A stretch of 53,356 nt of DNA, counting the filler, from Jimgerdemannia flammicorona (taxonomy: Eukaryota), in the NCBI GenBank assembly GCA_003990765.1. It is 3 parts of 3 records of this genome, joined end to end, with 100 filler letters (N's around TTAATTAATTAA, not from the genome) between each part and the next. Parts side by side here need not be neighbours in the genome. Positions count along the whole stretch, not along the records: positions 35,644 to 53,356 come from RBNJ01002442.1; 2 more parts are not named here. The stretch is one strand, 5' to 3'. The notes beneath the pieces are model-generated. The model saw only the letters and a program-made list of their open reading frames with translations. It had not been told where the DNA came from and did not search any database. This document shows positions 21,451-53,356 of this stretch, one piece after another. The translations under genes were made by a program, and so were the position numbers. Within the stretch, counting starts at the first letter, position 1; each line of letters starts with the position of its first letter.

Positions 21451-21519
21451 ATAGATATATTTATTTAGTATTTGGAGATTAAACTATATTTTGAGATATT
21501 TCAACAATATTTTGAAATT

Positions 21520-29036: not shown

Positions 29037-29869
29037 AGAAAGGTTGGCTGAGTAATGTCTATATATTAACAGTGAAGGACATTTGACCTAGTATATTCTA
29101 TTTTGATTAATTTAAAATATTTGAATTGGTATTTAAAGTTAAATATTAAATCTTATCTATAGTATAATTTTGATAGTATTATGATTTCTTTAAAAGGCCA
29201 GTTTAATTTTACTTTAGAGTTCCAGTAGAAGGAATAGTAATGTTCTATTTCAGAAGGCAAAAAAGATCTCTCAGCTCTAAATTCTCAATAACTGTGAAAG
29301 GCTAGCTATTATAGATAATATAGTAAATAAGCATATCTTGAAATAATTTCATCGAAATTCTTGGCTATTTAATATATCAAATAGTAATAAATTAATAAGA
29401 AAAAAAAAACAAAAAACAAAAAACAAAAGAAGCAAATAAATAATATAAAAATCATACTTTTGAGGAAAATAATTCTAATGCTCCTGCTTGATATCTTTTG
29501 TAAAATTTGTCTAGATTTACCAGTAGATTTATTATAGAGCCACCAATAAACTTATATATCATTTTACATTAATTACCTTTGACTCTTCTAATGTCTCTAT
29601 TCTCTGTATACTCTTTTGTAAACTTTTTTCAAATGCTAGAGCATTCTTTTGCTTTTACTTTTCCTTTCTTAGACTATTGTATTGAGAACTTACTTATAAT
29701 AGCTATACTTATTAAAGTTGTACCTAATACTGAAGATATTATAATAGTATCTACCATAAGTTGTACTGTAGAAAATATATCTGATCTACTTGATTGAGAT
29801 ATACTTGATTGTATATATATATTATTATTATGAGTTATATTATATATGAGTTTTAAATTATCATATTTA

Positions 29870-30354: not shown

Positions 30355-30995
30355 TTACCTATACTTGTTATAATGTCTGAAGCTCTCAGCTTATGCTTAT
30401 TGCTTATAGACTTGTGAGCTTATACTTATTACAATATTCAAAGCTCTCAGCTTATACTTGTTGCTTACAAAATCATAGACTTATGCTTGTTGCAATATTT
30501 GAAACTCTTGTCTTATGATTATTGCTTATAGGATTGTGAGCTTATAGGCTTTTATTACTTATGGAATTGTGGGCTTATAGGTTTTTATTTCTCATAGAAA
30601 TGTTGGCTTGCACTTATTGCAATATTTGAAGCTCTTGGGTTATGCTTTTTGCTTACAGGATTGCAAACTTGTACTTATTACAATATTCAAAGCCCTTGGC
30701 TTATACTTTTTGTTTACAGGATTGTGGGCTTGTACCTATTGTAATATTTGAGACTTGTGGCTTATACTTATTGCTTATAGAGTTGTGGGCTTATACTTGT
30801 TACAATATTCAAAGCTCTTGGCTTATACTTATTACTTGCAGAATTGTGGGCTTATGGGCTTTAATTGCTTATGAGATTGAAGCCTTGCACTTGTTGCAAT
30901 ATTTGAAGCTCTCAGCTTAAGCTTGTTGCAATATTCAAAGCTCTAAGCTTATACTTATTGCTCATAGAATTGTGAGTTGTAAGCTTAAAACTTGC
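30355..30995 (+). repeat. Tandem array of alternating about 30-bp units
   Basis: CTTATACTTGTTGCAATATTCAAAGCTCTTGG alternating with CTTATACTTATTGCTTATAGGATTGTGGG. Confidence 0.85.
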
Positions 30996-31279: not shown

Positions 31280-31470
31280 TATTTAGTATTTCAAAATTTA
31301 ACTACTTTTTGAAATTTGGAATCAACTATTGTTATTGGAATACTAGACTAATCACCATATCTTTAAATATATATATTTGTGAATGATTTAAGGGTCTAAA
31401 GCACCTCTTTTAGCTACTACAAGATATTTACTACTTTAAAAAACTCTCTCAATTAGAGTAATTATCATTC
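31280..31470 (-). pseudogene. hAT transposase C-terminal fragment cut by a LINE
   Basis: GGTCTAAAGCACCTCTTTT...AAAAAACTCTCT parallels 21569-21627. Confidence 0.55.
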
Positions 31471-31475
31471 TTCCT

Positions 31476-33190
31476 CTAGTAATTTTCTGGTTATAAAACT
31501 TTCTGACAATACTTACAATACTATTTTTGGAGAAACAATACTAGTATCATGGTGACCAATAAGCATTCTTAGGTGTGTACTGGGCAGGATAGCTCTGGTG
31601 CATTTAACTGATAGTATGTGGGGAGGGGCCCCAGCTTGAGGGGAAGTATGAGGGGCCTGCTGGCAGGAGAACATAGTAGGAGAGGGGGTGGTACTGGAGG
31701 CCAAGAGACAGGAAGAGCAAGCTTCATGGAGAAGATGAAGGGGGGTCAGTAGGGAGCTGGACTGAAGAGTTGGCTAAGGGGGGGAAGGCAATAGCAAAGG
31801 CTACAGAGCAGAGGCCTCAAGGGGGAGCTCCTCTGAGGGGCCAGAGTAGTGGGGCTGGTGGTGTAGTGGCTGAGGGGATGACTGCTGATGGGAGTGTAAT
31901 GGGTGATCTGGAAAAAAATCTAAATGGAACTGCTGATGGTAGACCAAGTAGTGAGAAAGGCATAAGGCCTAGGGATCTGGCTGATGGTATAATGGGACTA
32001 GTAGTGGCACTATTACTCAAGAAGTCAATCTTGGAATTTGTAGTCACCCTATACTTCAGAGGCTTGGCAATGATGACAAAAATAGTTCTGGGGCTGATTG
32101 CAAAGCAGATGGAAGGCATGGCATCTGTTAAGTTCTTGAAGAGCCTAGAAGGGATCGAGGTGGGCTTTGAGGAGACAGGGCTGCTGGAGGAGGCACTGAA
32201 GGCTGGGTTGATGGTTGAGGAGATATATATGTGTCCCAATAGCATAGTGCTTGAGATGGGACCCCAGGGTAGTATAGCTCCTGGTGAAGAGAGTGTCTAT
32301 AGTGAAAGCTGTAGAGATGAGGAGGAGAGTAGAGGAGGTCATGACTGAGTATAGGGAGGTGGTTGATATAGGGTTTAGGGTCTGGGAAGAGACCACCTTC
32401 CAGATAGGGGATGTTGATATCTGGATTTGACTGGCAGGGAGAGAGACTACTGACAAGGTATGTGATTGGCCTTCAGTGATGATTTGGGGAGCCTTTGTGT
32501 ACAAGGTAACAAGGGTAAAGGAGAGTAAGGAGGAGGAGGAGGATCTATTGGAGGCTCTGGAAGAGCTGAGTGATGCAGTAAAGCAGATGACAAAGGCTTG
32601 GAAGGTGTATGTGGAGTTGATACACTTGGAGATTTTTAGTGGGAGGTAAGTCCATATTGACAAGAGACTGTGGGAGAGGATTCAAGATCACAGGAGACAG
32701 AGGGAGTTGCTGGTGAGTCTGAAGATAAAGAAGACAAGGGCTGCTGATGGAAGCAAAGATACTGGGGGAGCTTTGGTGAGTGTCTGGGCTGGGGGGCAAG
32801 GGAAGAATGTGAAGGTGGGTCTGGAGGAGGCCAGAAAGACACTAAGCAAGAACCCATATAAGAATGGTACATTTGAAGTCTGGGAGTAGTCTTCTATACC
32901 CACCCCTCTTATTAGACAGAGACTGGCTGTGAGGGGCTGCATGGTGGAGGATGTGCCCATACATGAGATCCAGCAGGTGCACTTTGGGATTCCCGAGGTA
33001 GCAAAAGGTGGACAAGTGATGGTAGTTGGTGAGGAGGAACTGGTGTATGTCCTGGAGAAGGGGCAGAATAAGGCTGCAAGTGTTAGAGAGGATATCTCAA
33101 TGCTGAGTAGAGGTTGGCCTGTGAGCCATAGGGGGAAGAAAGTGGGGAATCTACTGTGGATGTGCCATATGATGAACAATCTTATAGCTC
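31476..33190 (+). mobile_element. LINE subfamily A 5' part (ORF1 relic), interrupted by a subfamily B LINE
   Basis: Decayed 5' end CTAGTAATTTTCTGGTTATA; PRDLADG..LLKKSILEFVV; collinear with the minus-strand copy up to MMNNL. Confidence 0.88.
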
Positions 33191-33203
33191 AAAAACCCTC
33201 TCA

Positions 33204-35543
33204 CCGGTAACTTTCAGGTGACACAAGATTTGGACAACACTTTCCGCGAAGTTTTTGGTGAAAAGCTACTATCAACATGGCGAGCAACGAGCATACTGGT
33301 GGGCAGGTCGGCCAGGGGGGCAGCTGGGCCTTCGACTGGCAGCAGGTTGGGAGGAAACGAGGAGATGGTTTGGGGATGCCAGGGCCGTCTGTGGTGGGCG
33401 GTGGCACTGGAGGAGGAGGGAGAGGCGGACTGAGGCAGAGAGGTGGGGGGAGGGCGACCTTTGCTGACAAGGTCAGGACGGGGAAGATGGCCGCAGGGCT
33501 GGATGGTTGGTTGGGACTGGGGAAGGCGATGCCGGGTTCAGTAGGGGGGCAGGGAGGACCCCCCATGGGAGCCTCAGGCAGTGTGGGGGGAGGGGGAGTA
33601 GGGGTTGGAGATGTGACTGCTGATGGGGCTGTGACGGGGAATCTGGAAAAAAATCCAGATGTGACGGTGGTTGGCGGATCCAGTCAGAAGGAGGGCACGA
33701 GGCCCAGGGACCTGGCTGATGGCGTGACTGGCATGGTGTCGGCACCATTACTCAAAAAGTTGAGGTCAGAATTCGCGGTCACATTGTGTTTCCGAGGCTT
33801 GGCGGTGACTGCGAGGATGATCCTGGGGCTGGTGGCGCAGGAGGTGAAGGGGGCAGCTACGGTCAAGTTCATGAAGGGGAAGGAAGGGATTGAGGTTGGG
33901 TTTGAAGAAGAGGTGTCAATGCTGGAGGCTATGGAGAGAGGGGTAGTAGTGGGTAGAGTGGTAGTTCCTATGGCGAGGTGCATGTGCTGGGACCCGAGAG
34001 TGGTGCAGTTGACGGTGCTGGATCTTCCTACGGTGTCGCGGGAGAAGGCTAGGGAGTTGATTGTGGAGGTGGTGAAGGATTATGGGGATGTCATTGATAT
34101 CGGGTTCAAAGTCTGGGAGGGTACGGAACTTAGGACTGGCGACGTTGATGTCAGAGTGTGCTTGTTTGGTCGGGAGAACACGGGGAAGGCGAGGGACTGG
34201 CCGGCGACGCTGAAGTGGGGACCAGTGGAGTGCAGGGTCTCTCGGGTGAAAGGGACGCTAGAGGAAGAGGAGGATTTGCTGGAGGCTCTTGAGGATCTGA
34301 CGGGAGCTGTCAAGAGGAGGCGATTGGCTTGGAAGGAGTATGAGGCCAAGACGGTGGTGGAAATTGTAGAAGGGAAGAAGATCAGGATGGATCAAGGAGC
34401 TTGGGAGAAGATGCAGGGGAGGCGTATCCAGAAGGAGCTGCTGGAGAAATTGGGAGGCGGCGTGGTGGAAGGTGGAAAGGGAGGAAGTGGCATTGGATCG
34501 AGGGAAAGTGACTGGGCTGGGGAGCCCAGAGTGGATCAAAGGGTGGCCCAAGAGGTCTGTGGGGAAGGAGGGCAGGGCGGTATGGTGGAGGATGCTGAGA
34601 TGAGCGTAGAAGTACAGCCACAGTACGGGGTCCCGGGAGGAGTCGGAGGTGAGGAGGAGCTTCTTGATGTCCTGGAGGAGGAGTGGGATGAGTCAGGAAG
34701 GAGGATCGCAGTGGTGGACCCAGTGGTTGGGGGGGAAGGGAGTGCCCAGGGTGCCGAGGCAGTGGTGGAGGAGGAGAAGTAGCTGTGGAAGACTCTGGAA
34801 GGGGTGGCAGCTGAGGAGCTGGGAGGTGAGGACTTCTGGGTTATGAGTGATAGGCACTGGGAGGAAATTCTGCGTGGTGAGGAGGTGCCACAGAAGGTCC
34901 GGAATGAAATTCTGGCGGTGCTCCTGGAGTCGGTGGAGTATCAAGTCGATGATCAGCAAGAGGAGGAACTCCGAGTGATTGCGAATGATCGAGCAGCTTA
35001 CCTGTGGAACTCGAAGAAAGGGTTGGAGAAGTGGGGAGTAGTGTGCAGGGAGTATCGGACCGAATTCGAAGTAGTGGATGGAGCAGAGTGCCAGGAAATC
35101 TTGGAGGCGCTGGATGTGCAGGAGGTGATGGAGGACGAGTTGGAGGCTGAGCGGCGCCTGGATATGGAGGGAGACAGGAGGAGCATGGAGTTCTAGATTG
35201 TGATATCCCTACCAACATTATTCAATATGAACAGTATAACTAGAATCTTTTCTTTGAACGTCAATGGGCTAAGGGGGGCAAAACGGCGTAGAAACATTTT
35301 TAGCTGGTTGAAGGGTCTGGAGGCAGATCTCTTCCTATTGCAGGATGTGCGGTATGAGCCAGATGTGGACCTATTGGACTGGACTCGGGAATGGGGTGGG
35401 GTGGCTATTTGGATAAGGCAGGTGGGCATCCTGGTTAGAAAAGGGATGGGGGACATTGGGGACGATGGACATTGGGGGAGTAGGCTGGTGTGGGGAGTGT
35501 GGAGGAGGCCTGGTTGGAATGCTTTGACTGTTGGGTCGTGCTA
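33204..35543 (+). mobile_element. Youngest LINE copy (subfamily B): 5' UTR, ORF1 and start of ORF2, truncated by the gap
   Basis: 5' end CCGGTAACTTTCAGGTGACA; many CpGs retained; ORF2 from 35227 MNSITRIFSLNVNGLRG..DLFLLQDVR (APE endonuclease). Confidence 0.92.
33277..35196 (+). pseudogene. LINE ORF1 (about 639 codons, one premature TAG at 34780-34782)
   Basis: Track ORFs 33277-34782 and 34804-35196 are in frame; the paralog at 45867 has TGG at the stop position. Gly-rich N-terminus, RRM-like DLP...YGDVIDIGFKVWEGTELRTGDVDV, acidic C-terminus, no CCHC knuckle seen. Confidence 0.85.
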
Positions 35544-35643: not shown

Positions 35644-35895
35644 GAAAGGCCTTATTAAGGGCTTTCAAATGACACCAAGATCATCAAATTTGGATGATTA
35701 TTCATCAAGTTATTGATGTAAACATTTAATTGTCTAATTTGGAAATCAAAACAATGGTTGATTCGAATCCGATTCGAATCCGATTCGAATTCGATTCGAA
35801 TCCATCCGGATGGGATTCGAATCCAATTCGAATCTGATTCGAATCCAATTCGAATCCATCCGAATCCCATCCGGATTGACTCGTTCGGAGCACTA
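35644..35895. mobile_element. Terminus of a young hAT-like DNA element with ATTCGAATC subterminal repeats
   Basis: Dense (G)ATTCGAATC(C) array 35758-35865 with intact CpGs; ends GAGCACTA (TAGTG on the other strand) and abruptly truncates an LTR. Confidence 0.6.
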
Positions 35896-36207
35896 TATGT
35901 GGCTAACTATAGATTTACTACTTCTGGTAATGCTTGGATGTGTCCTCTGGGTACAGGTGTATCCACAGGACATGAGTGTGTCCGCAGGACATGAGTGTGT
36001 CTGCAGGACATGAGTGTGTTCGCAGGACATGAGTGTGTCTTCAGGACACAGGTAAACAATTCTGATCTGGTGTCTTGGCTAATTATAAGTGTGGCAGGCA
36101 TGGGTAACTATGATACACTGGAAGTTACATCATGCTGAGTAAGTATGCTAATTGTTCACGTCATCTGGCTAAGTTATGATTCGGGTAGTATGTTTTGGTC
36201 TGCTACA
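35896..36207 (-). mobile_element. LTR fragment related to the 18668-20033 LTR, inserted in the chromovirus 5' LTR; contains a 19-bp tandem repeat (35966-36048)
   Basis: Minus-strand TGTAGC...CCCGAATCATAACTTAGCCAGATGACGTGAACA parallels 18668 onward; CAGGACATGAGTGTGT x4. Confidence 0.78.
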
Positions 36208-38689
36208 CTAGTAATTGAGGTCCTGATCACAAATCTCATTATAGTTATCAAATTAGTCACTCATACTTAGTCAGAAATCACAGACCAACTTGTATAAATA
36301 CCCCCCATTTCTATCTGATATAAAGCAGTTTTAGTTCAGTCCTTGATATAAGCATCAAGTTCCCCCCCCACACACACATTCCCCTGAGTCTTAGTAATGG
36401 TATCTAAGTGTCTCTAGTATTTCTGACTAAACTCCAGAAGCCTAGCTAACTTCTGCCAGAACTGAGACTGGTATATAAATCCCCAAAAACTTAAGTAAAC
36501 CCATTGAATCTGAATTCCAAGGCAAATTCAGTCTGTGTACAGCAAAGAACAAGACCCTTGAAAGATAGGACAAAAGAGAAAGACCTTTGAAAGATAAGGC
36601 ACTACTACTATAACTACTTTTAAGCAAGCACTTCCTCAAACTGAAGGCTTCTTGATACACATTGTATACTAAGTCCCTAAGTAATAGTCTTACTTCTCTA
36701 ATTATCCAAAGGATAAGTGAGGGATAGAAGTGAGAGTTATTACAACTTGGTAGCAGCAGGTTATCAGCCAAGAAGGTACCAAGAACACACTTCTGAGAAG
36801 TTGGAACAAGACCAACCTTAGACAGGAGTAACTTCCAGAACTAACTGTAGATCTCCAAACCAGAGCCAGAGAAGCCCTTGCCATTAGGACTAGGTGGTAC
36901 CAGGAAACCACAGACCCAGATACCTACCAGCTAGTAATTGACCAAGTTTACAAAGATCTATACCAGGCCTTTAGGACTTACCATCCAGGACTTAGGAATA
37001 TAGTCAGCCACCATAGGTTCTATGAACTTCTCCATAAACATATTGGAACTACTAGGACTCCAGAATCTACTGCTGTAGCTACTCAGAATTTTCTAAATTA
37101 TATCACACCCCCTGCTGCAAAAGAAGCAGCTGCCAAGTAGATTACATCTGATAGATACCATCATACTCCAACCAAGACCTCACTCTACTATAGGCTAGTT
37201 ATATACTATACCTCTGCCATAACCAGGTACAAGAATGAGCAAGCAGGCCACCCATCCCCTACTGCTGAACAAGGAGCAGGTCCATCTACTTAGCCAGAAA
37301 CTAATATCCTCTTTGAAGGACCTAGTCAGTATAAGGATACACTATCTCATCAGGAAAGGGAGTCAGATGAAGACTCTACAGGTTACTAGTTTGATGATAG
37401 CCAACTAGAAATAGCAGACCTAGAAATTTATCAAGGAACTATAGGTCAAGAAGATCAGACCCCAGAACAAACCCAGCCACCTATACAGAGGTTTGATTTA
37501 CCCTTTCTCACAGGACTCTTTGATCTGATATCTGGGAATTAAGTAACCCCAAGTTGTATAGCATCACAACTCTACTAAGCAGAACAATCTTCAGGAGAAT
37601 CTACCCCTACAGATAGTCAATACAATAGTAGATGCCAATATTGCAGCACTGACTACCTAGCTAGCTGTATTAGCAGGAATAGTAGGACAGATTACTGAAC
37701 AGAATAAGCCAACCAAGACCTTGTGAATTCCAACATTCAGTAGAAAAAACAGTAATATCAAAAACTTCATCAATATAGTTGATACAGACTACTGAGCAAA
37801 CCAATGGAATGACAACCAAGTATTAATAGGAATGCTCACCAACAACCAGAACAATATCCTCTAATAGTTATTTACCACATCAGTAGCATAAGTGGAAACA
37901 GTAGCTATATTTTTCACTGGAACAGCAGCTGAATTCTGGCAAACCTTGGCAGTATCCAGTAACCTGGGAAGACTGCCCTCAAGTCAATGGACAAGCACCT
38001 GCTAATAATAGACCAGGTTGGGATGACTATAAAGCAGGCCCAGGACTCAAGGCCCTGCTACTGACCAAATTCCAAAATGCAGTCTATATATAGAAACTTG
38101 GAACAAACTGTCCTAGATGAAGTTCTACAAGAATAGCAAGGAGGATCTAGAAAACTTTGTCACCAGAATGGATGCCTATCTCAAAACCATTAGACTTACC
38201 TACCAGGAGACCAATTAGGCCATCAATGGTACCAGAGCCAACCATCTCTTTGCAGCCCTACCAGACTGGCTCACCCAGAAGATTAAGAAACAAGGCCTCC
38301 CCCAAGGATGCCCCCACTACTCATAGTGCTTTGCCCAAGTACAAAGAAGAGCCCATGAAATCCTTGCTGCACAGGCCCTACAAAATCAAGAATACAAGAA
38401 GGATGACCAAGATAGGAGGAATCCCACCAGGAGAAATGATTAAAGAAGTAATCAAAGGAATGATCAAAGAAACCAGCAAAACCCCAGAGGACCAAGATCT
38501 CTCACTGAGGATAAAAAGAAGCAGCTCTGTGAAAAGAGATTGTGCTTCAACTGCAAGAAGGCAGGACATATCTCATTCAAATGCCCTAAAAAGAGAAACA
38601 GATTAGGTGAACTCAGTAACCAGAACATTACTGTTATTGGAGAAGGTCTAGAAAAGAAGAACCCCAAGAATATCATCAAAGTATAGAAG

Positions 38690-39085
38690 ATATGGTACAA
38701 GGCTATCATCCCTATTAAGGCTCACCCAACCAATGCTGGATATGACCTCTACAGTAGCCAAGACCTCACCATTCTACCAAGCACCAATGCTACAGTGTGA
38801 ACAGAGATTACAATACAAGCTCCCAAAGGTATATACATCCACCTTGCTGAGTGAAGCAGCCTAGCTAAAGAGTTCAACATTGGGTTAGGAGGAAGAATAA
38901 TTGACCAAGAATTTACTGGTGAAATCTGTATCATCTTGCAGAATTTTGGAGATACATCATTTGAAGTCAAAGCAGACCAAAGAATTGTCCAAGCAATCAT
39001 TAAAGAAATCTGTCAAGATCTCACTATTGAAGAAGTCCCTGAGCTCTCCCAAACAGACCATGGTAAGAAAGAGTTTGGATCAACC
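38690..39085 (+). pseudogene. Retroelement-encoded trimeric dUTPase domain
   Basis: AGYDL, E*SSLA (RSS motif), GRIIDQEFTGEI, DQRIVQAI, HGKKEFGST correspond to the five dUTPase motifs, between the Gag knuckle and the protease. Confidence 0.9.
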
Positions 39086-42000
39086 AATAAACCTCTCAGT
39101 CAAAAGGTCACCACTATGAAGGAAGATGATGAAAACTAGTATAAGAGAATTGTGAATGGTTATACACCATGTAGATGATGCTCTCATTCTATTTGAATGT
39201 ACTACATAGAACATATTAGTGAATGCCATGCATGTCTCTTCAAGGGTTTCAAAATCAATTCTAAAAGAAACCAAGTCCAACAGACTGAGAAACCCAAACA
39301 AGACAACCCTCCTTGTGAAGGATGGAGAGAAACTGACTTTGAGAAGACTGACAGCAATTGGAACAACAATGAAGATGAAGAGCTCAATACCATCAAGAAG
39401 GAGGACAGTTGCATCAAGTTCACAAGTCAAGTCCACAGATAGAATATCAATGTCTTGCTTGATAGCAGTACTACTAGAAACTATATCAGCACTAAGACTG
39501 CCAAGAGGATTGGAGCCCAAAGCAGACTATACCACTGACCAAGATCTGTGAGTATCTCTTACTCAAGATTGACAAATATCAAGAGAAGTTGGACTTCAGT
39601 ATTGTAGATCTTCCAGGACAAGACATTATCCTAGGAAAAGTCTGGCTGACCCAATACAACCCAGATATCAACTAGAGGACCAACAAGGTTAATCTGATCC
39701 ATGAAGGGAGAAAGATCACCCTGATACCCTAAGAAGGTACCAATCATCAAGGAATTGAAATCATCTCTGCCATCCAAATGAAGAGACTCTCTCAAAAAAA
39801 GGAAAACACCCACTTCATCTACACTATACAAGAAGTCAACAAAGCTACAAGTAGCCCAATCCCAACAGAAGCTCAAGAACTGTTTGAAGAATTCCAAGAT
39901 ATATTCCAAGATCCTCAAGGACTTCCACCCAAGCACCAAATCTAACATGGAATTGATCTCATTCTAAGATCTGAACCCCTATATAAGAGTATCTATCAAC
40001 TAGCCCAACCTGAACTCAAGACCCTCAAGGATGAGTTGATCAAACTACTGGTCCAAGAATATATTGAACCCAGCCACTCTCTATTTGGAGCTCCCATTCT
40101 ATTTGTCAAGAAGAAGGATGGCTCTCTGCAAATATATATTGACTATAGAGCTCTCAACAAAATCACTATCAAGAACTAGTATACCTTATCTAGGATTGAT
40201 GAGTTATTGCACCAAATCTTCAAGGCCAAGACCTTCTCCCTACTAGACTTGTGAAATGGCTACCACCAGATTCTTATTAATGAGAAGGATATTGAAAAGA
40301 CAGCTTTCTGAATACAGTTTAGACACTACCAGTTTCAAGTCATGCCTTTTAGTTTGACTAATATGCCAGCAACATTCCAGTATCTGATAAATGACATCTT
40401 TGGACCACTCCTCAACATCTGTATCCTTGTATATATTGATGATATACTAATCTACAGTGAAACAGTAGAGTTGCACTACACCTATCTCAGATAGGTACTG
40501 ACTCTTCTGCAAGAACACCAGCTCTATGCCAAGATGAGCAAGTATAAGTTCTATCAAGACCAGATTGAGTACCTAAGACATATCATCTCTGCTGAAGGTA
40601 TCAATGTGGACTCTCAAAAGGTATCAGCTCTCAAGAATATTCCTATCCCTACTATCCTCAAGCTACTTCAGTACTTTCTGAGTATTGCTGGTTACTACCA
40701 AAGATTTATCCAAGAATACTCTGCTATTGCAGCCCCACTAACCAGCCTGGCCTGCAAAGGAGTAAACATCAAGACTGAATGGACTTCCAAATATATCCAG
40801 GCTATAGACCATCTCAAAAGACTCCATACTGAGGCCCCAGTACTAATTGCACCTGACCCTACCAGGCCATTCACTCAGACCACAGATACCTCTGACATTG
40901 CTATTGGGGCAGTATTCAGCCAAAAAGACCACCCAGTAGCCTATCTTTCCCAAATGCTTAAGCCAGCTAAGATCTAGTATACTATCTATAATAAGGAACT
41001 CCTGGCCATTATTACTATACTCCAAGAATGGTACCATTTCCTTCTGAGATAACTATTTATAGCCTATACTGATTACTATGATCTGTGGTATATTCACACA
41101 CAGCCTATACTGACCCACAGACAAGCCCACTGGATGGAAATCATTACCAACTTTAATATAGAAATCAAGTATATCTCAGACAAAACCAACTATGTGGCTG
41201 ATGGTTTCTCTAGATACATAGAAGATGAACTTGTCTTCATGGTTGAGATAATTAGAGACCTTATCCAGATGATCAAGGATAGCTACTAGCAAGACAGCCC
41301 CCTGATGAAATTCCTTCAATTCTGCCAAGTCCCAGAGGCCAAGGTCCCAGAACTCATAAGGCAAATGTCCAAGAGATTCACTTACTGTGATGGACTTATC
41401 TACAGAGACCATGACAGAGTGGTTGTGCCCAACAATGATATTCTGTGGCTCAAGATTATACAGGAACTTTATAATACTCCTACAGTAGGACATTTTGGTT
41501 TCAAGAAGACCTATAACCTCCTCTCAAGAGAGTTCTACAGACCAAAGATGACCAAGGTTATTAAAGACTTTATAGCCTCATATAAGATGTATCAAAGGTT
41601 CAAAAGTAGTAATAAGCTACCAGCAGGACTTCTGCAACTGCTACTAATCCCAAGTCACAACTGAGATCAGATTGCAATGGACTTCATTGTCCAACTCCCC
41701 AAGACCAAGGCAAGATAGGATACCATTGTGGTATTCATAGACCACCTAAGTAAACAAGCCTATTTTGCATCCACCAAGACCACTGCTACTATACCAGAGA
41801 TTGCTGAGATTTTTCTCAATTAAGTATTCAGACTATATGGCATGCCTAGCACCATTATATCTGACTGAGATGCCAAGTTCACAAGTAACTTCTGAAAGGC
41901 ATTCTTCTCTCTCCATGGAACCAATCTGAAGTTCTCTACTACCTACCACCCTCAGACTGATGGTCAAACTGAGTGAACCAATAGGACTCTCAAGCAGATG

Positions 42001-43385
42001 CTTAGCATCTTCTGCTGTTACAAGCAGAATGATTGGGACAAGTACCTAGCCTATATATAACAACAGCCAGCAAACCACTATGAAGAAGACTTCATTCTTC
42101 CTAAACCATGGTCAATACCCAAGGACCCTGAGTACTACTGTGAAATCAGTAGTTCCAGTAGGTTGAGACCATTTCTGATCTTACCTAAATGACAAGAGAT
42201 GCTCTCATAGAAGCACAGGACTACTAGACCAAGTATGTGAACTTGAAGTGAAGAGAAGTCTCCTACAATATTGGTGATATGGTTATACTTAGAACAGATC
42301 ACCTCCACCCAGATACCCTAGCATAACAACTAGCTAAGAAACTCTCTACTAGAAGAATTGGACCATACAAGATTGTGGAAAAAGTCAGTGAAGCTAACTA
42401 TAAGTTGCAACTTCCTTACAATATCTAGTATACCCAGTATTTCATATCAGTCAATTGGTGGACTACTATGAGAATCTATTTCCCAAGCATATAGTTCCAC
42501 CACTACTCTCAATTAGAATCAATGATCCAGAGGAATTCAAAATTGAGGAAGTACTTGACCATAAGGTCTGCAAATATTTCAAAATAGTCAAGTGCTTTTT
42601 CCTCATTAAGTGGAAGGGTTACCATACCCATAATACTATCTGAGAAAAGGAAGAAACTCTGGAGAATACACATGAAGCCCTCTAGAACTATATGGAAACA
42701 CTTACTCTCTAGCAAAGGAAGGAACTATATATAGCTCTAAAGAATTAGAGCATATAGCAAATAAGGAGGATACTATATATTTTATCCAAAACATATAATA
42801 CTAAATATTGCAGAAAAAAGAAACATTATAGTTAACCAACAAGAAGAGGCTCAGGCAAAGGATAATCTTGCATAGTATAGCAAAACACATTTGAATAACT
42901 CCATTTCATACCATCTGTGTCATCTCTGCTAGATGATGATGAATGCTTTATATGGAACTTAGAAAAGCTGATGATGTTGAAACCAATCTAAGCCCATCTA
43001 TATAACAGATATTGTTACTAGGAATTGCCTTGGATTATAAGAAATTCTATTTCTGAGAGGTTTGAACCCCCAGCTATAATAATGGGAGCTCTTGCCCTAG
43101 ACAAGAATGGCCAGTCCTCACAAATGTACCAACTAGATAAAAAAAAAAGAGGACCAAGATCTGTTAACTCTGTGTAACTACAACTATAAGTGATGATATC
43201 TTTGAAATCAGGAGTTTCTCATATGACCAGCACATGCCCCACTTATAGCAACAGGTCACACATTTTGCTAGAAAGTATGACCAAAAAAAGGTCATACCAG
43301 ATAGGTGAATAAGTATAAATACCCAAGGCAAAAATACCCTGCAACTCTAATCCCCCTCTTCTTATAAAGAAAAGACAAGACAAGA

Positions 43386-44209
43386 ATGCCTACTACCTGC
43401 TGCCAAACTGTCTACCATAGCCAGTCCCTCTCAAGCCATATAGACCACCTTTTTGGACACATCCAGGTTGCTATCTAAGGAAGGAACTGCTGCTCTGAGG
43501 CCATTAATCTCTCTAGCCCAGACCTGACAATATGTCCTTGACTGCTGTGAACTTATCAAAAGAGCCTATCTTACCACCAGCCACCTAGAGATCTGGCATA
43601 AATACAAAATCAGCCACCAGCTTCTATAATATACAACTGGCCTACCCACTGACCAGGTCTCAGACTAGACTCACCTGGACAGACATAAACAGAGACTTAC
43701 CAAGAAGGTCTATTAAATAATGTGCCATGTACTCTTTACAATCCCCAACCTCAACTATATCCAACTGAAGGATTTCTAGAATCTCTCTTTCCCCAAGATT
43801 GATAAGCTAGAGATCAAGGTTGTCTAAGAAGCCCACTCCTGGATTATTTTCAAGTCTACTGACTGCAAACGCCACTAGAGTGCCCTCATGAATGACAATC
43901 CAGACGAATGGCTAAGGCCTCTCTGACCTCTTTGAAGGACCACCTATCTGAATAGATATTCCCAGACATAAGGATCAAGAACCCTACTTGGATGGTCTCA
44001 ACTGCATCAGATAGAGAACCCCTACACCAGTACTCATTCCAATACAAGAACTATTTGCAGACCTCATTGACTTCTCCATCCTGAACAGTGAGTCATCAGC
44101 AACCACCTCTCTTGCTACTGAAGAGGATGGCAATAATACTGAGGAAGACTCTCTACCTTTCTCTCTCCTAGTTCTCAATTTCCAAATCAATGAGGATGTT
44201 GATTTCTAA
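43386..44209 (+). pseudogene. Accessory ORF between chromodomain and PPT, homologous to the solo-LTR ORF at 2100-2945
   Basis: MPTTCCQT..HLEIWHKYKISHQL..KKVY*IM..IPNLNYIQLKDF*NLS..IDKLEIKVV..LMNDNPDEWL..ELFADLIDFS..LVLNF; TATAAATACCC at about 43313; stop abuts the PPT. Confidence 0.8.
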
Positions 44210-44982
44210 GGAGAGAAGGATGTAATAGAACAAATAAATAGACAAGATGTGATGAATGATCACATGACCCAGCAATGACATCATTATATAATTGAGTGCA
44301 ACATATGAATGATGAATGAATGAATGATGTGAAAAACAATATCCTGTTTATCTCTAACAATTGGCACTGTAGCAACTATTACCACAGCAACTGATTATTG
44401 CCTAGTAATTGAGGTCCTTATCACAAAGTTGTTTTTATCAAAAATTATCTGACAAAGGTCATAATCACAAACCTCATTATAGTTACCAAATTAGTGACTC
44501 ATACTTAGTCAGAAATCACAGACCAACTTGTATAAATACCCCCAGTTTCTATCTGAAATTAAGTAGTTTTAGTTTAGTCCTTAATATAAGTATCAAGTTC
44601 CCCCCATACACACATATTCTCCTAAGTCTTAGTAATGACATCTAAGTAACTCTGGTGTTTCTGACTAAACTCTAAAAGCCTAGCAAACTTCTGCCAGAAC
44701 TGAGACTGGTATATAAATCCCCAAAGACTTAAATAAATCCATTGAATCTGAATTCTAAGATAAATTCAGTCTGTGCACAGCAAAAAACAAGACTCTTGAA
44801 AGATAGGGCAAAAGAGAAAGACCTTTGAAAGATAAGGTACTACCACTACAACTACTTTTAAGTGAGTACTTCCTCAAACTGAAGGCTTCTTGGTATATAT
44901 TATATACTAAGTCTCTAAGTAATAGTCTTACTTCCCTAATTAGCCAAAGGATAAGTGAGGGGTAGAAGTGAGAGTTATTACA

Positions 44983-45724
44983 CCTTCTACTAGACAGTGA
45001 TGTTGCCCACCCTGGGGACTCCAACCAATCTATCAACCAGTCAGCAAATCTCCCATCAATCTCTCCCATCTCAATAGCTTCTCCTGTATACCTATCTGTT
45101 ATCCCTCCTTGAAAACAAAGAGCCAGTATCTAGCCAGCCCTACCCATACTACTAAAACCCACTCACAGTAAGCCAACCATTATCCACACTACCTACTAAC
45201 TGAGATCTCAAATCCTCCCAGCAATCTCTCTCTCAATATGGCCTCCTCTCTACCCCCAGCCAGTTCCCTACTACTATCCAAAAGTTCCCCAGAACCTCAC
45301 ACTCTCCCAGCCAATGTTCTGGTATCTGCACAAATCCCCCAACTTGTCCTATATTATAACACTCTCACAATCTAATTGGCCACTATCCACCAGATGTCCA
45401 GCATGAAAATTCAACATGACATTCCTCTGCAGCATCCACCACCATACCACTCAGAACTTAGAAGGAAGTCACCTCCACACCTCAGCACTCCATAACCAGA
45501 CTCCTGCCCAGTCCCACTCCTTACCAATCCCCACTACCTACCAACTACTTGGCCAAAGATCCTGGCCAAGACCTCACTAACACTCCATACTATCACCAAT
45601 ATCAAACTCAGTAAGTAGAATATCCCCCAGAAGCAGTCTGTCCCATTACCACATAGCTGAGCCCCATAGCATCTCCCACTCATTGCTTTGCCATTATAGG
45701 CTGATTCAGTATAGGCATCTTTTA
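44983..45724 (-). mobile_element. Fragment of LINE ORF2 C-terminus (related G-rich family)
   Basis: Minus strand encodes NIGQVGGFVQIPEHWLGECEVLG, as in the other copies; bounded by the Gypsy 3' LTR and a new LINE 5' end. Confidence 0.8.
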
Positions 45725-47454
45725 CCAGTAACATTCGGGTGACACAAGACTCTGACAACACTTTTTACAACGTTTTTGGTGCCTGATGACTAACAACATG
45801 GACAGCAACAATTGAACTAGTGAGCGTACTGGCCAGGGGGGTGATGGTGCCTTTGGCTGGCAGCAGGTGGGGAGGAGGGGAGATGGCTTGGGGATGCCAG
45901 GGGCCTCGATGGCTAGCCGAGGCCCTGGTGGCGGAGGGAGGGGCGGTCTGAGGCAGAGAGAAGGGGAGAGGTCAACCTTTGCTGATAAGGTCAGAATGGG
46001 GAAGATGGCTTCTAGGCTAGATGGTTGGCTGGGCCTGGGGAAGGCATCGATGGCTACAGCTGGGGGGCAGGGAGGTGTACCCTGGAGTACTTCTGGTGGT
46101 AGGGAAGGGGCCAGTGTAGGGGCTGGAGATGTGACTGTTGATGGGGCTGTGACTGGGGATCTGGCAAAAAATCCAGATGTGATGGTGGTTGGCAATTCCG
46201 GACTTGGAGTGGGCACGAGGCCTGGAGACCTGGCTGATGGGGTGATAGGCATGGTGTTGGCCCCATTACTCAAGAAGTTGAGGTCAGAATTCATGGTCAC
46301 CATGTGCTTCCGGGGCTTGGCTGTAATGGCGAGGATGATTTTGGGGCTGGTGGTACAGGAGGCTAAGGGAGCAGCGTCATTGAAGTTCTTGAAGGGAAAG
46401 GAAGGAGTTGAGGTGGGGTTTGAGGAGGAAGATGCCTTGTTGGCAGTCATAGAGAAGAGGGTGAGGGTTGGCGGCATTGTGGTCCCTATGGCCTGGTGCA
46501 TACACTGGGACCCCCGAGTGGTGCAGTGGACAGTGCTGGACCTCCCGACTGTGTCAAAGGAAAGGACCAGGGAGTTGGTTGTGGAGGTGGTCAAGGAGTA
46601 TGGTGAGATTGTGGATGTTGGGTTCAAGATCTGGGAGGGCACAGAGCTTAGGACTGGCAATATTGATGTCAGGGTGAGGCTGGCTGGAAAGGAGAGTATG
46701 GGGAAGTCGAGGGACTGGCTAGCAGCACTGAGGTGGGGACTGGTGGAGTGTAAGGTCACCAGGGTGAAGGGGACTCTGGAGGAGGAGGAGGACCTGTTGG
46801 AGGCTCTGGAGGACCTAGAAGGGGCAGTGGCAAGGAGGAGATTGGCCTGGAAGGAGTTTGAGGCCAGGATGGTAGTGGGGGAGGTGGATGGGAAGAGGAT
46901 CAGGATGGAGAAGGGGGCCTGGGAAAAGATGCAGGGGAGGAGGATCCAGAAGGAGCTGTTGGCGAAGTTGGGCAGGGGTGGGGCTGGTGGAAGCTCAGGG
47001 GAGGGAGTTACAGGGTCGCGGGAGAGCACCTGGGCTGAGGGGGGAGAGATGGCCCAGGGTGGTGATCAGATTGGAGGTGGGGAGGGGAGGGAGGGCAATT
47101 TGGAGGTGGATGCCAAAATGGGCGAGGGTGTGCACCCTCAGTATAGCATTCCGGGTGGGGCAGAGGGAGAGGAGGAGCTGATGGATGTGCCGGATGAGGA
47201 GTGGGATGAGTCAGTGAGAAGGAGTATGCTGGTGGACCCTGAGGTGGATGGAGGACAAATCGCTCAGGGGGCGGCGGAGGTAGTGGATGAGGAGAAGTGG
47301 ATGTGGAAGACCTTGGAAGAGGTAGCAGCTGAGGAGCTGGGGGGAGAGGACTTCAGGGTGTTGGAGGAGAAGCATTGGGAGGAGATCCTATGGGGAGAGG
47401 AGGTGCCGAGAAAGATGAGGAATGAGATCCTGGCAGTCTCCTGGAGTCAGTTAA

Positions 47455-49516
47455 TGTAAGAGGGTTGCTTTTTAGGGTAACCGTTACGTAGTTCTGGAAG
47501 GGTTTTCTGGAGGTTCTGGATATTCTGGAAGACTGTTTTCTTATGGCCAAGATCAATTTCATATGGAGTACATCCTCTATGCTTATTGATTTCAAGATTG
47601 AGTTGACATCTCAACCAAAGTCCTTTTTCAGACTAGTTCTGGATGTTCAGGATTTTCTGTATTTCAGGAAGTTCAAGAAACTAAGACCAGCTTAGTTGAA
47701 TTGGTGTATTGCTGCAGACAATACCCAATTAGGAAATTTCGTGATGGGGTTAGGAGTAGGACCTAACAAGGAGCGGATTTACTTAAGAGTGGTTTGTAGG
47801 TTATGGAATAGGTTTATTTGCTATTCATGATATTGCTACACTAGGAGTGGTTGTGTGAAGGGATATTGTGGGGAAGTATTCAGGAATGTTCTTGTGTATT
47901 CGAGTCTGAGATTCTGAGGTCTGGGGGAGGGGGTATTTATACTAGTGAGGGGCTATCTGGACTATGCTGAATATAAATATAGCACTAAGTGCCTTGCTGA
48001 GTTGGAATGCAGTCACATAGTACAAGTGTGATCTTACATATCAAGAGATTGTCTGACTATTGAGTCAGTTTACAGTCACATCGTACAATGCTAATCTAAC
48101 TATACTATGACTGCTAGACTATTTATGGGTTTAGGCGCTGTCTGGGTAGTCTTCAATGATATCACCATCGATTGTATCATCTCTGATGAAGTAGTCATCT
48201 AGGAAGAGTGGTTCACGGATTACTTCTCCTTGTTCACTGAGGTAATAGTACATTGGAACTTCATCTCTGTCCCACAAGATAGCATCGTTGGTCTCATAGG
48301 CTGGATAAGGTGTTGGTGGGCAAAGGATGGGTGTATTGTCTTCACTTTCGTCAGATTCACTGTCTGCATACCTTCTATAGGTTACAGCACTATGAGTTGC
48401 AGAATTATAGTAAGGTGGCAGCTATGGTTCATGTTGCTCATACTCAGGTGGTGGAGTGGTTGGTTCAATCTTGAGGGTTGTCTGGAGGTACAGGTTGTGT
48501 TCTCTGGTCTCCTCATTGTAGTTGAAGTAGTTGGGAGTGAACATGGGTTGGTATTCATACCAGTGGTCATTGTCCCAATAAGTCTCGTATGCAGTTATGA
48601 ACTGTTGCAAGTTCATTGGCAAGTTTGGCGGTATGATCAGGGTTGGCCGAGATCCTTGCCTAGAGGTCATGTCAGCATCAGAGGGATCATTGTCTTCTGC
48701 TTCATCTTTGTCGAAGTGGATTATATCATAGATGTCCTTCATGGTATATCCGACTTGAGGCATTTGCAGGATATGGTCATCAGGGTGTGGGAAGGTTCTG
48801 TCTGTGGTCTGGATGTATTCGAGATACTTGTGGTTGAGTTCTTGTATCATGTCGTTGATTTGGCCATAGGACAGGGTAGCAACCATTTCACTGGTAGTGA
48901 CTTGGAGGCAGGGAATAAAGGTGTTGTACTTATAGAAGAGTTCTCGATGTTTGTGGGTGATGAGCTTCTGGTGTTGAGACATCTGGGTAATGTCTATATC
49001 GTGGTGGTGTTCGACCATATCTTCCAAGAGGTGGCCAATCTGGTAGTAGCTTGAGATTTGTCTGATTCGGTGGACCTCACTAAGCATGTTCAGGGCATTC
49101 CATTGGACTTCCACAAAGTAGAGGGGTGCCAGGCTATGGATATTCATGAGGGGCAGAGGGGGTGTGGCTTGGTTGACAATGGCATTCCAAATGTCACCGC
49201 GGATATGGTTGTAGATCTCAGTGGTCATGTTTGTGTGTTTGGAAGTTATGGTTGTTATTTGTTTTGGTTTTCTGATTTGATGCATCTCAGTGCTCAGTAT
49301 ATATACATTTAGTCCTGATTGGTACGATTCTGTTTGTGTAAATCTTGTGTTCCGTGACTTCATATTGACTCAGCTTTGTGCACTGTGACTTCGGTTTGAC
49401 TCAGCTTTGTGATCAAGCAGGTGATTTCCAGATTTGTTCAGAGGTCGTGTGTAATTTCGGTGGCTTGTTCAGAGGGTGACATGTAATTTCAGTAGCTTGG
49501 AGGTTGTGCACTTACA
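47455..49516 (-). mobile_element. Long solo LTR (2062 bp) carrying an internal ORF
   Basis: Perfect TGTAAG...CTTACA termini; 5-bp TSD GTTAA (47450-47454) / GTTGA (49517-49521); LINE ORF1 resumes across it; minus-strand TATAAATACCCC at about 47930-47941. Confidence 0.88.
48131..49228 (-). pseudogene. LTR-borne accessory ORF, 365 codons with a single in-frame TAG (48422-48424)
   Basis: MTTEIYNHIR..PPLP..RQISSYYQIGHLLE..RELF..FIPCL..PPPEYEQHEP*LPPYY..DSESDESED..IIEDYPDSA; TATATATA at about 49298-49305 upstream. Confidence 0.82.
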
Positions 49517-52500
49517 GTTGAGTATCAGGTTGATGATCAGTGGGAGGAGGAACTTAGGAGAATTGTGAGTGACAGAGCACTTTTCTTATGGAATTCGAGG
49601 AAGGGACTGGAGAAGTGGCATGCTGTCTGCTTGGACTACAGGGCTGATATAGAGGAGGTGGACAGGGTGAAATGTCAGGAAATCTTTGAAGCACTGGAGG
49701 CTCAGGATAATGCTGAGGGTGAATTGGAAGCTGAGTGGTGCTTGGATCTGGCAGGGGATGAGATGAGCATGGAATTATAAATTGGGGTCTCTATTGCAAC
49801 ATTTCTTCAATATGAACAGTACAACTAGGATTTTCTCATTGAACGTTAATAGGCTATGGGGGTCAGCTAGGAGGAAGTATATTTTTGGTTGGCTTAAGGG
49901 ACTGGATGCAGACCTCTTCTTACTGCAGGATATTCATTATGAGGCAGATGGGGACTTACAAGATTGGACTAAGGAATGGGGGAGTGCAGTAGTTTGGAGG
50001 GGGAAAGTGTGTATTCTCATTCGGAAAGGGATGGGGGACATTGGGAACATTGGACATTGGGGGTCTCGGGTGGTGTGGGGAGTGTAGAAGAGGCCTAGAT
50101 GGGGCCCATTGATGGTTGGGTCTTGTTACTGCCCAGCTGAGAGAGGGGAGAGGGTGGAATGGATCCGCAGATTGAAAGAGGCTGGTGTGTTGGGAGGAGT
50201 TGGGTTAGACTGTATGGGGGGTGACTTTAACATGGTATGGGATAAGGAGTTAGACAGGACTGATGGAGGGAGAGGTATGTAGAGTGAAAGTGGTGGGTTG
50301 GGTGACTGGTTGGAGATGGAGAGATTGTGTTCTCTAGTAGACTCAGGAAGACATTTTTGGGCAGATCAGCGGATGTACACTCACTGGGCAGCAGGACTGG
50401 GCTCCAGGATTGACTGGGTTCTAATGGCAGAGTGTTGGGGAACTGATGTCTGGTTAGCACTAGAAGTCATTTGGTGTCCATGCTCTGATCACTGGGGGCT
50501 GCTTGGAGGGGAGAGGTTTGGGGGAAATAAGGATGGACCTGGACATTGGTGACTGAATTCTTCCCTGTTGGAGGATAGAGGGTTGTGGGAGGGATGGGAA
50601 TCAGAGGTGGTTGGAAATATAGGCAGGTGGTGGGAACAAGGACTGGGAATTGGGGACCGCTGGAGAAGGCTGAAGGTGAAGGCTCAGGAGTATTAGAGGG
50701 AAGCAGGGAAATGGAAGTGTGCCCAGTGAAGGCGGCAGGTGCTGTGGGCCTCACGGCATCTGGCAGCACTCATGGAGAGATGGGCAGGTGTGCTGGAGGA
50801 TGGGGCCATGACTGATTGGCATATTGCGAGGATCCGACAGGAGGTGGAGGAGCTCAAAGAGGTGCTATGTAGGGAGGAGGAGGAGCAGTTGCAGGGAATG
50901 GTGGCCCACCTGCCATGGCAGGGGCTTGAGGAGGGGGAGAGGTCAACCAGATTCTTGTCATGGTTGTTATAAGTACGATGAATGAGGCAGCAGTGGGAGG
51001 GAGTTTTGGATGAGAATGGCGAGCTGGTAGTGGAGACTCCGGCAATTCTAGACCTACTGCAAGCCCAGTGGGGGAATCTTTGGAGTGAGGAGGATGGGGG
51101 ATTGGATGCCCTGAACATTGAAAGACAGCTGGGGGATTGGCACCCAGACCCTGCAATGGGACTTGGGGCATTGGGGGACCCAGTGAGTAGTGAGGAGATT
51201 TGCAGGGTTGTGGCCTCAACGAGTAAGGGGACAGCTCCAGGAGAGAATGGGCTTCCCTGGGATTTTGGCAGAAGATGACTGGGGTGGGTGAGGTGCTAGA
51301 GGAGATGACTGCTATGTGTGATGGAGTTCTTCGGTCTGGTGTCTGGATTGGGGGACAGCACTTAGGGCTGGTCTCTTTGCTCTTTAAGGACAAGAGTAGG
51401 CAGGAGGACTGGAAGAACTGGCAGCCGATTATGCTTCTCGACATGGACCGCAAATTGGTGATGAAAATTTTGGTGATGAGGTTGCAAGGTGTCGCTCAGC
51501 AGGTTCTTGGTGTGGAGCAACAAGGGTTTGTTGGTGGTCAGTTGATTCGAGATGGGACAGCCTGGGTTCATGGAGTGATTGAAGGTGCCCGGGCATCAGG
51601 GGTGGATGGAAGATTGGTGTTTCTGGACCAAGAGAAGGCTTATGATAGAGTGCAGAGAATATGGCTGGAGGGAGTGCTGAAGCGGATTGGCATTCTGCCA
51701 GGGGTCCGAAGATCATTAATCAGCCTCTTGGAGGACAGTCAGGCAGTATTGGTCATCAATGGCCACCGGGGGGTGACCTTTCCCCTGGGGTGCAGGGTAC
51801 CACAAGGGGACCCCTTGTCACCCGTATTGTATGCTCTTTCTCTGGAGCCACTACTGGACAGGATTCGGCATAAGATTGGAGGCCTGAACATTTTAGGGGT
51901 GAACTGGAAGGTGGGGGCCTTTGCTGATGATATGGTGGTCGGGCTGGGCTCCTTGGGAGATGTAGGAGAGCTACAGAGGACTGTGGAATGGTATGAGCAG
52001 GGTTCTGGTGCTAAATTTAACTGGCACAAATGGGAGACACTGGTGCTGGGCACTGGAATTGTTGGTGGTGATATTATTGGGATGGTGGTACCAGTGGGTG
52101 AACCAGTGTGCTACTTGGGGATCTACTTCTCGGTGTTCAGATCTCTTCTTCTCCAGGCATGGTGGGACTGTAAACTTCTGGAGTGGGGTAATGTCTTGCT
52201 GAGATGGAGAGGCCGGCATATGTCCCTTGCTGGAAGGGTGATGGTGTTGAATGTGTACTGGATGCCAAAGCTGTGGTATGTTAGATATCATTTGGATTTC
52301 CCACCCTAGGTGGTTAAGGAGTTGTTGAAGATGGCGAGGTCATGGATCTGGAGAGAGTGGTGAAGCCAGGTTGGATGGGAGGTGCTCACACTGACCTTGG
52401 AAAGAGGTGGGCTGGGCCTAGTGGACTTTACTAAGCAGCTTCTATGCCTGAGAGCCTGGTGGCTGCAAAGGGCGAGCGAGCTCAGGGAGTGGGAGTGGGT

Positions 52501-53356
52501 GCCACTCATGCAGAGGTTGTGGGAGGTTTGATACTCCCCACATGGTGGCTCTGGGGATCTGCTTGTAATGGTGGCCATGGAAGGGAGCAGGAAGATGCGG
52601 TTTACAGGCTTTTGGTGGGGAGTGGTGGATGGTACTAAGAAGATTGGACTTTGGTGGTGAGGTGATGAAGCCGAGGAGGTTTGGGGACCGCGGATGTGGT
52701 GGTGGGACAGGCTTCTATTGGGTGGGGTCCTGGTGGAGGACTTTCAGCTTGGCGAGGGCCTGGAGTGTCTGCGAGGCCTAGGGGGGGACCTGTGGCCAGA
52801 AGCCTGGCAGAGGGTTGGAATTGGGGAGGAGTGGAATTGGATTGGACTCTGGCTTTGGAGCAAACGGGTGCGGCAGTGGCTGCCCCCCAAGTTCTGGGTG
52901 GTGTGGTGGAGGGTCTTGCGGCAGAATGTGATGTTGAACTATCAGTCTGGACACTTGGTGGAGGGTGGGGTATTCGAGTGTGAGGATTGTTTCAATGTTG
53001 GTCAGGAAGGAGGAGTGATACAAACACCTGAACATTGGCTTGGTGAATGCGAGGTTTTGGGGGAGTTTTGGGGAGGAATTATGGACAGGATAGGGATGGG
53101 TATCAGGGAGGGAGAGGAAGGGGGGAGATGGGGAGAGCTCCGCCGGTGACTAGTGGATGGAGTTGGGGATGAATGGCTGACCCTTAGTTGGGCTTTGGCT
53201 ATGTGGGTTGGACTGGCTGGGCATTAGGTTTATGTATTTGAGGAAGGATGCCAGGTTGGGGTGGGTGATAAGATGGCCAGGTGGGAATGGTTGATGTTGG
53301 ATATTTTGAATAGCTGGTGGCAGGGTTGGGGGATGGGTGGGGGGTACCGCAGGGGT

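Follow-up and report, generated by a model that had tools for sequence, protein, structure and literature searches.

In the window analysed here, a stretch of 53,356 nucleotides (nt) from Jimgerdemannia flammicorona (assembly GCA_003990765.1) that joins parts of three records with filler between them, an element resembling a long interspersed nuclear element (LINE) is interrupted by an insertion of 2062 base pairs (bp), which carries a long open reading frame (ORF) on its minus strand and which, from the evidence set out below, appears to be a solo long terminal repeat (LTR). Both the insertion and its host lie in the part taken from record RBNJ01002442.1 (positions 35,644 to 53,356). The insertion occupies 47455-49516, and its ends, TGTAAG (47455-47460) and CTTACA (49511-49516), form a 6-base terminal inverted repeat of the TG...CA type. 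The insertion point sits within ORF1 of the LINE-like element, which is G-rich, and the same gene is found on both flanks. A paralogous LINE copy elsewhere in the window crosses this point without a break at 34933/34934: its positions 33203-34934 align to 45724-47451 (75.1%), and 34933-35543 align to 49517-50128 (72.0%). In public sequencing runs, moreover, four contigs join 47432-47438 to 49515-49533 and represent LINE copies without the insertion. Because of its ends, the target-site duplication at its borders and the empty paralogous LINE site, we regard the 2062-bp element as a precise insertion. Neither gag nor pol was found inside it: Pfam was empty for the ORF, and every other frame contains at least 14 stops. 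The Rfam search gave no match over 47000-50000, no transfer RNA gene was found in the window, and the window contains no second copy of the element, a point to which we return when the interpretation is weighed.

The nature of the insertion is best seen in its other copies. We compared four public sequencing runs with positions 47255-49716 and counted contigs at least 80% alike, the pieces being mostly shorter than 300 nt among those listed. All four runs hold contigs matching the element (3602, 447, 414 and 309); those of run X1 are distributed by likeness as 501 at 99% or more, 915 at 95-99%, 1549 at 90-95% and 637 below 90%, and the differences from the window copy are overwhelmingly transitions. 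The runs that hold the element are mostly soil metagenomes, together with two organisms. Scans of metagenome, viral and genome contigs gave no relative of this DNA, nor did a plasmid collection yield a match. Contigs that leave the element break off exactly at 47455/47457 and at 49516. At the first of these borders, one contig of run X3 extends before 47457 with a sequence ending in CTGCTGCTACCAAGTTA, the reverse complement of which reads ACT followed by TGGTAGCAGCAG immediately after the end of the LTR; this 15-mer is identical to window positions 36745-36759, directly 3′ of the 5′ LTR of a chromovirus present in the window (element A), where it comprises a spacer and the primer-binding site (PBS). 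The 13-mer TTGGTAGCAGCAG has exactly one occurrence in the window. Two further X3 contigs show a different continuation past the LTR 3′ end, also starting with TTGGTA on the minus strand. At the opposite border, four X3 contigs (agreement 0.98) extend past 49516 with ACTCTCCCCTTCTT, which on the minus strand is a run of 13 purines placed one base before the TG of the LTR. The remaining flanks are diverse (agreement 0.59-0.6), as expected for dispersed insertions. Since a PBS is found at one end and a polypurine tract (PPT) at the other, the minus strand is the sense of the LTR, and this is also the sense of the ORF; as judged from these junctions, 47455-49516 is an LTR in minus orientation containing the ORF in sense. 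The initial annotation of this DNA had proposed a solo LTR, a TG...CA element of 2062 bp with a 5-bp target-site duplication and no gag or pol. The LTR reading is borne out by copies that adjoin a PBS on one side and a PPT on the other, and both the element's extent and the lack of gag and pol agree with what we found; the duplication is present as well, but it is imperfect, with four of the five bases alike (GTTAA/GTTGA).

The likeness to element A goes somewhat beyond the PBS. The 2062-bp LTR and element A have in common the same 15-base spacer plus PBS and the region of a TATA box, ACTAGTATAAATACCCCC, which matches the LTR of element A (LTR-A) at 17 of 18 bases and belongs to the second of the two TATA boxes described below. 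Outside these segments no similarity was found between the two LTRs (a local alignment scored 31, and shuffles reached at most 28), and unlike the 2062-bp LTR, LTR-A is about 540 bp long and is without an ORF. The shared PBS, spacer and TATA box suggest that the 2062-bp LTR belongs to a lineage related to the element A chromovirus.

The ORF runs on the minus strand from an ATG at 49228 to a TAA at 48131-48133 and comprises 365 codons interrupted by a single in-frame TAG (48422-48424). The longest open run in the element is 315 codons, or 412 if one stop is allowed, versus maxima of 200 and 255 in 1000 dinucleotide-preserving shuffles. Over the ORF span there is one stop in the coding frame, 14 and 36 in the other two minus-strand frames, and 2 in the shadow frame of the opposite strand. 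An exhaustive HMMER scan of 1.84 billion representatives, with E up to 0.001, returned four matches, two of them true homologues (P0002 and P0003) and two low-complexity chance matches; word-indexed searches found no homologues beyond these two, and tblastn of the ORF against the rest of the window gave nothing below E 0.02. P0003, of 128 amino acids, is 84% identical and starts at the methionine of the ORF. P0002, of 247 amino acids, is 65-66% identical, aligns to residues 115-364 and ends where the ORF ends; it is open across the column of the stop of the window copy, from which it differs by only two indels, both in-frame gaps of two residues. The homologues have identical blocks, such as the 14-residue FPHPDDHILQMPQV, between variable acidic linkers. 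That the frame is kept at 65% identity, with indels that are all in frame, argues for coding constraint in the family.

The window copy itself has decayed. All 20 amino-acid differences from P0003 can be explained by one base change each, and in 16 cases the change toward the window copy is G>A or C>T, 10 of these 16 at CpG. The observed/expected ratio of CpG is 0.33 in the 2062-bp element and falls to 0.01 over the 8.7 kb of element A, from which nearly every CpG is gone; CpG depletion in both therefore indicates that repeats here decay by C-to-T change at CpG. Read from its in-frame stop and its CpG decay, the window copy is dead.

The layout of the LTR is summarised in the table, where LTR positions are counted on the minus strand with position 1 at 49516.

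Table. Coordinates of the insertion, its host and the features inside the LTR
Feature	Position	Strand	Remarks
Target-site duplication, left copy, GTTAA	47450..47454	.	direct reading
Target-site duplication, right copy, GTTGA	49517..49521	.	4 of 5 bases the same as in the left copy
Predicted solo LTR, 2062 bp	47455..49516	- (LTR sense)	ends, empty paralogous site, PBS-like and PPT-like continuations in other copies
Empty site in the uninterrupted paralogous LINE copy	34929..34938	+	alignment
Host LINE-like element, ORF1 portion left of the insertion	45724..47454	+	alignment
Host LINE-like element right of the insertion	49517..53356	+	RVT_1 at 51227-52309, E 4.6e-22
Pair of 18-nt direct repeats, 32 nt apart, close to the 5′ end of the LTR	49450..49499	-	
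Tandem pair of 31-nt repeats, both containing minus-strand TGAGTCA	49345..49406	-	40-100 nt upstream of the first TATA box
First TATA box, TATATATAC	49297..49305	-	LTR position 212; 77 nt upstream of the ORF ATG
ORF, 365 codons + TAA	48131..49228	-	ATG at LTR position 289; in-frame TAG 48422-48424
Pair of 40-nt direct repeats (73% alike), 63 nt apart	47998..48100	-	downstream of the ORF stop, upstream of the second TATA box
Second TATA box, TATAAATACCCC	47930..47941	-	LTR position 1576; 190 nt downstream of the ORF stop
AATAAA	47813..47818	-	LTR position 1699; 123 nt downstream of the second TATA box; putative poly(A) signal in R
GTTCTGGA-type short repeats at 9-nt spacing	47504..47661	-	putative U5

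The order of these features bears on the part of the LTR in which the ORF is placed, namely U3 (the unique 3′ region), R (the repeat) or U5 (the unique 5′ region). The 12-mer TATAAATACCCC that forms the second TATA box has five sites in the window at no more than one mismatch, versus 0.24 expected, and in none of 100 shuffles were five reached. The paired LTRs of element A account for two of these sites (36293 and 44531), and an LTR-like repeat (LTR-B) for a third, at 1849. In LTR-A the 12-mer is in sense and upstream of the PBS of element A, and a 44-nt segment around it is common to LTR-A and LTR-B. We infer that this box may be the shared core promoter of the genomic RNA in these LTR families, located in the region of the U3/R border. 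Downstream of it, the AATAAA is the sole AATAAA or ATTAAA on the sense strand of the LTR, with about 360 nt separating it from the CA end at 47455; the order of TATA box and then poly(A) signal that is characteristic of an LTR is thus present as motifs (TATAAATACCCC at 47941, AATAAA at 47818). Accordingly laid out, U3 would extend from 49516 to approximately 47910 and include the whole ORF, R would reach to just past 47813, and U5 would run to 47455. Because it is upstream, in sense, of the TATAAATACCCC box and of the only AATAAA, the ORF most likely lies in U3. Upstream of the first TATA box, the tandem 31-nt repeats with their TGAGTCA motifs are a putative enhancer of the ORF promoter. The initial annotation had anticipated much of this arrangement: an ORF of 365 codons with one stop is what translation gives, a TATA box of its own is found at 49305-49297 on the minus strand, and the motif that was said to follow on the same strand, common to the paired LTRs of the window, is the TATAAATACCCC box at 47941-47930. 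Its placement of the ORF in U3 is probable, the ORF being wholly within the LTR and upstream of the conserved box and the AATAAA; the border itself is positioned by motifs. Taken as a whole, what the initial annotation saw is confirmed, and its interpretation is supported in part.

The predicted protein is acidic, with an isoelectric point (pI) of 4.46. Asp, Glu, Tyr and Pro are abundant in its C-terminal half, and the C-terminal 220 residues (pI 4.05) contain 46 Asp+Glu, 31 aromatic residues and 25 Pro. No membrane segment is found along it, the highest 19-residue hydropathy being 0.86. The N-terminal 145 residues or so are modelled, with low confidence, as helical, and a structure search of the Atlas with P0002 (model pLDDT, the predicted local distance difference test, of 0.39) gave no usable match. 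From its composition and its position in the element, our best guess is that the product would be an element-encoded intracellular accessory or regulatory factor.

Taking these results together, we favour, at somewhat better than even chance, the explanation that the insertion derives from a high-copy family of LTR retrotransposons with an ORF in U3, of which it is a solo LTR, each LTR of the family having a promoter-ORF-poly(A) unit and the copy in this window being dead. The events leading to the present locus would be as follows. An LTR element would have inserted, in minus orientation, into ORF1 of the LINE-like element, and its internal region would subsequently have been lost by recombination between its LTRs. 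If the genomic RNA is transcribed from the second TATA box, the ORF would be wholly in U3, and each LTR, solo or paired, would hold a complete promoter-ORF-poly(A) unit. A monocistronic mRNA of about 1.5 kb would then start downstream of the first TATA box and end at the poly(A) signal of the LTR, and the genomic RNA, starting about 95 nt before the AATAAA, would read through that same signal. Skipping of a poly(A) signal by virtue of its proximity to the promoter is known from retroviruses. A stronger proposal, which we put forward tentatively and hold to be rather less than an even bet, is that the LTR is itself a gene, every LTR, the numerous solo LTRs dispersed in the genome of an abundant soil eukaryote included, being an autonomous unit for an acidic accessory protein kept by selection, for example a promoter regulator or an anti-silencing factor.

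Several observations weigh against the explanation that we favour. The element is present only once in the window, and no gag-pol was seen beside this LTR either in the window or in the contigs examined. Among the listed contigs, none joins the ORF to the PBS or to the PPT in one piece, and the exact PBS is present in one contig only. A contig of 9601 nt in run X9 has, near its start and in the ORF sense, some 210 nt of ORF-like sequence (48323-48532, about 80% alike) and is then unlike the window, so that ORF-like sequence is also found in another context. With regard to the protein, Pfam offers no family at E up to 10; there is no solved relative, the best PDB profile match being SKA1 at E 0.11; and two AlphaFold2 models are poor (mean pLDDT 31.8 and 39.5). 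Only two true homologues, each of them a fragment, came out of the 1.84 billion representatives; being open is the reason why they are in the database, and this introduces an ascertainment bias. Nine listed variant sites in the ORF among the copies divide into 5 non-synonymous and 4 synonymous, which gives no signal either way. Finally, the U3/R border is drawn from motifs only, and a genomic promoter at the first TATA box would put the ORF in R.

This last point leads to a different account of the same LTR, in which transcription of the genomic RNA starts from the first TATA box (49305). R would then measure about 1.5 kb and include the ORF, which would be not a U3 gene but the first cistron of the genomic RNA, repeated at the 3′ end of that RNA. 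The tandem TGAGTCA repeats do precede the first TATA box, as enhancers of LTRs usually do, and the only AATAAA is downstream of the ORF, so that RNA initiated at the first TATA box would have its 3′ end at that signal. So long an R (about 1.5 kb) would, however, be very unusual, and it is the second box, with its ACTAGTATAAATACCCCC region, that matches LTR-A at 17 of 18 bases and lies in the 44 nt that LTR-A and LTR-B share; in LTR-A this box is in sense and upstream of the PBS, which points to it as the family-wide core promoter. We consider this account quite unlikely. Unlikely too, if marginally more deserving of attention, is that the LTR is genuine and the ORF a passenger, captured or born by chance and without a role for element or host, which would be open in just a few copies, simply as a consequence of recent amplification of the family. 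The protein has no family or fold and few relatives, the window copy is broken, the two homologues owe their presence in the database only to their being open, and the listed variant sites divide 5 to 4. Set against this, P0002 keeps the frame over 247 residues in spite of being only 65-66% identical, with in-frame indels only and the same stop, and P0003 retains the same start; conservation is patchy in the manner of a protein, as in the identical block FPHPDDHILQMPQV; and the ORF has a TATA box and upstream repeats of its own.

The two remaining possibilities do away either with the LTR or with the gene. Were the insertion some other non-autonomous TG...CA element, or a small composite transposon with a gene, the single copy in the window and the fact that neither a paired copy nor gag-pol was seen would be accounted for; yet a spacer and PBS identical over 15 bases to those of the chromovirus adjoin one end, a run of 13 purines adjoins the other in four concordant contigs, and the 5-bp target duplication and TG...CA ends fit an LTR, which makes this a very improbable alternative. 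Least credible of all is that the open frame is an artefact, either the shadow of a plus-strand gene or an effect of composition. The plus strand is indeed open for 283 codons over the same DNA (48203-49054), but this frame is without relatives among the matches, whereas it is the minus-strand translation that both homologues match, with a shared start and stop, and shuffled sequences never exceeded 200 open codons.

Three further observations were made on the contigs of the public runs. In run X3, a joint from 49516 to 48719 has the LTR end followed by ORF-like sequence (about 48690-48719) and looks like one copy nested in the ORF of another. Summed contig depth in runs X9 and X15, for which an RNA origin is only a guess, is far higher on 47587-47918 than on the ORF, a pattern that transcription from a point shortly after the second TATA box would produce; contig depth cannot rank the parts of a gene, and these values were not used as evidence. 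Among the eight joints listed none skips the ORF, a result to which we give no weight, given that 4749 pieces and 202 loose ends lie outside them.

In its placement, the ORF recalls the sag gene of mouse mammary tumour virus (MMTV), a superantigen gene located in U3 of the viral LTR, with which the layout of a gene inside an LTR has so far mainly been linked. As with sag, a coding sequence of about 320-365 codons is contained in the LTR in sense, ahead of what is here the putative main promoter, and a placement of this type puts the ORF twice in each provirus and once in each solo LTR. The two nevertheless differ in important respects: (i) there is no sequence relation between them, Pfam being empty at E up to 10; (ii) Sag is a type II membrane protein, and no membrane segment is present here (hydropathy maximum 0.86); (iii) the element is a retrotransposon and not an infectious retrovirus. 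By analogy, then, the placement resembles that of MMTV sag, yet the ORF does not belong to that family. The nef gene of lentiviruses and bel2/bet of foamy viruses start internally and run into U3 of the 3′ LTR. Although these too are accessory coding sequences that share DNA with U3, in our element the ATG (49228, 288 nt inside the LTR), the stop, the TATA box and the poly(A) signal are all inside the LTR. Additional ORFs are also carried by other retrotransposons: elements of the Athila type have env-like ORFs, and LTR elements of bdelloids reportedly have additional ORFs. With all of these the present element would share an extra ORF besides gag and pol. For fungal Gypsy elements an 'add. 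ORF' has been described, which in the parts of the report consulted is drawn in the internal region and not in the LTR (PMC2864245); to that extent, the ORF described here is unlike them, being in the LTR itself. In a full-text literature search, with most subscription journals outside its coverage, no publication was found that describes a non-retroviral LTR retrotransposon, fungal or other, with a protein ORF contained entirely in its LTR. Two documents matched the phrases searched for (PMC6673714 and bioRxiv 10.64898/2026.05.04.722472) and meant something else. Provisionally, therefore, we regard an ORF inside the LTR of a non-retroviral LTR retrotransposon as novel.

The remainder of the window is rich in other repeats. 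Element A (approximately 36208-44982) is a chromovirus with zf-CCHC, dUTPase (38855-39139), RVP_2, RVT_1, RNase H, Integrase_H2C2 and Chromo domains; it is decayed but full-length, and its LTRs are 90% alike. Chromoviruses bearing dUTPase have been reported from basidiomycetes and Tuber in the sections of PMC2864245 that were consulted. Between the chromodomain and the 3′ LTR of element A, at 43314-43325 and in sense, is TATAAATACCCA, which is one mismatch from the LTR box and could be an internal promoter or the remnant of an LTR. The LTR-like repeat B consists of direct repeats of about 1.4 kb at 1820-3204 and 20050-21467, which are 78.7% alike and 18.2 kb apart and have, close to one end, a minus-strand TATAAATACCCC box. 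Past 1820, copy 1 continues in sequence resembling LTR-A, and copy 2 is truncated at 20050. No ORF was found in LTR-B, including its long U3-like part, every frame having 18-41 stops.

The LINE-like family has three copies in the window, at 23564-29042 (minus strand), 31470-35543 (plus) and 45724-53356 (plus), with a strong G/C strand skew; two of them are placed head to head (27354-29042 versus 31470-33179, 70% alike). Its ORF1 has about 500-550 codons and is without a Pfam family. The nearest relatives of the LINE reverse transcriptase are metagenome proteins (63-70% identity), followed at a greater distance by proteins of fish (33-36%) and of Agaricales (28%). Inverted repeats of about 520 bp, at 4298-4820 and 8762-9288, are 85-88% complementary and about 4 kb apart, in the manner of the ends of a DNA transposon; of the ORFs between them, the two tested gave no Pfam match. 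Tandem arrays with periods of 26, 15, 9 and 61 nt are found at 12091-13107, 13461-13802, 14548-14983, 16556-16789 and 30357-30974, and the 26-nt unit is also present inverted at 16684-16789.

In current practice LTRs count as non-coding control DNA and are masked as a matter of routine. If the solo LTR described here is representative of a family with an ORF in U3, solo LTRs, commonly regarded as inert scars, could be sources of a protein at many loci, and the recombination that deletes an element would leave an expressible copy of the gene behind. The retrotransposon would in this way have its accessory gene at double dose without lengthening its interior. The LTR would also provide a concrete case of one poly(A) signal that could be used by one transcript and skipped by another. 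Furthermore, an entire protein family would escape annotation through the masking of repeats, a view that fits our results because only two fragmentary relatives are found in 1.84 billion representatives, as against thousands of contigs in the soil runs.

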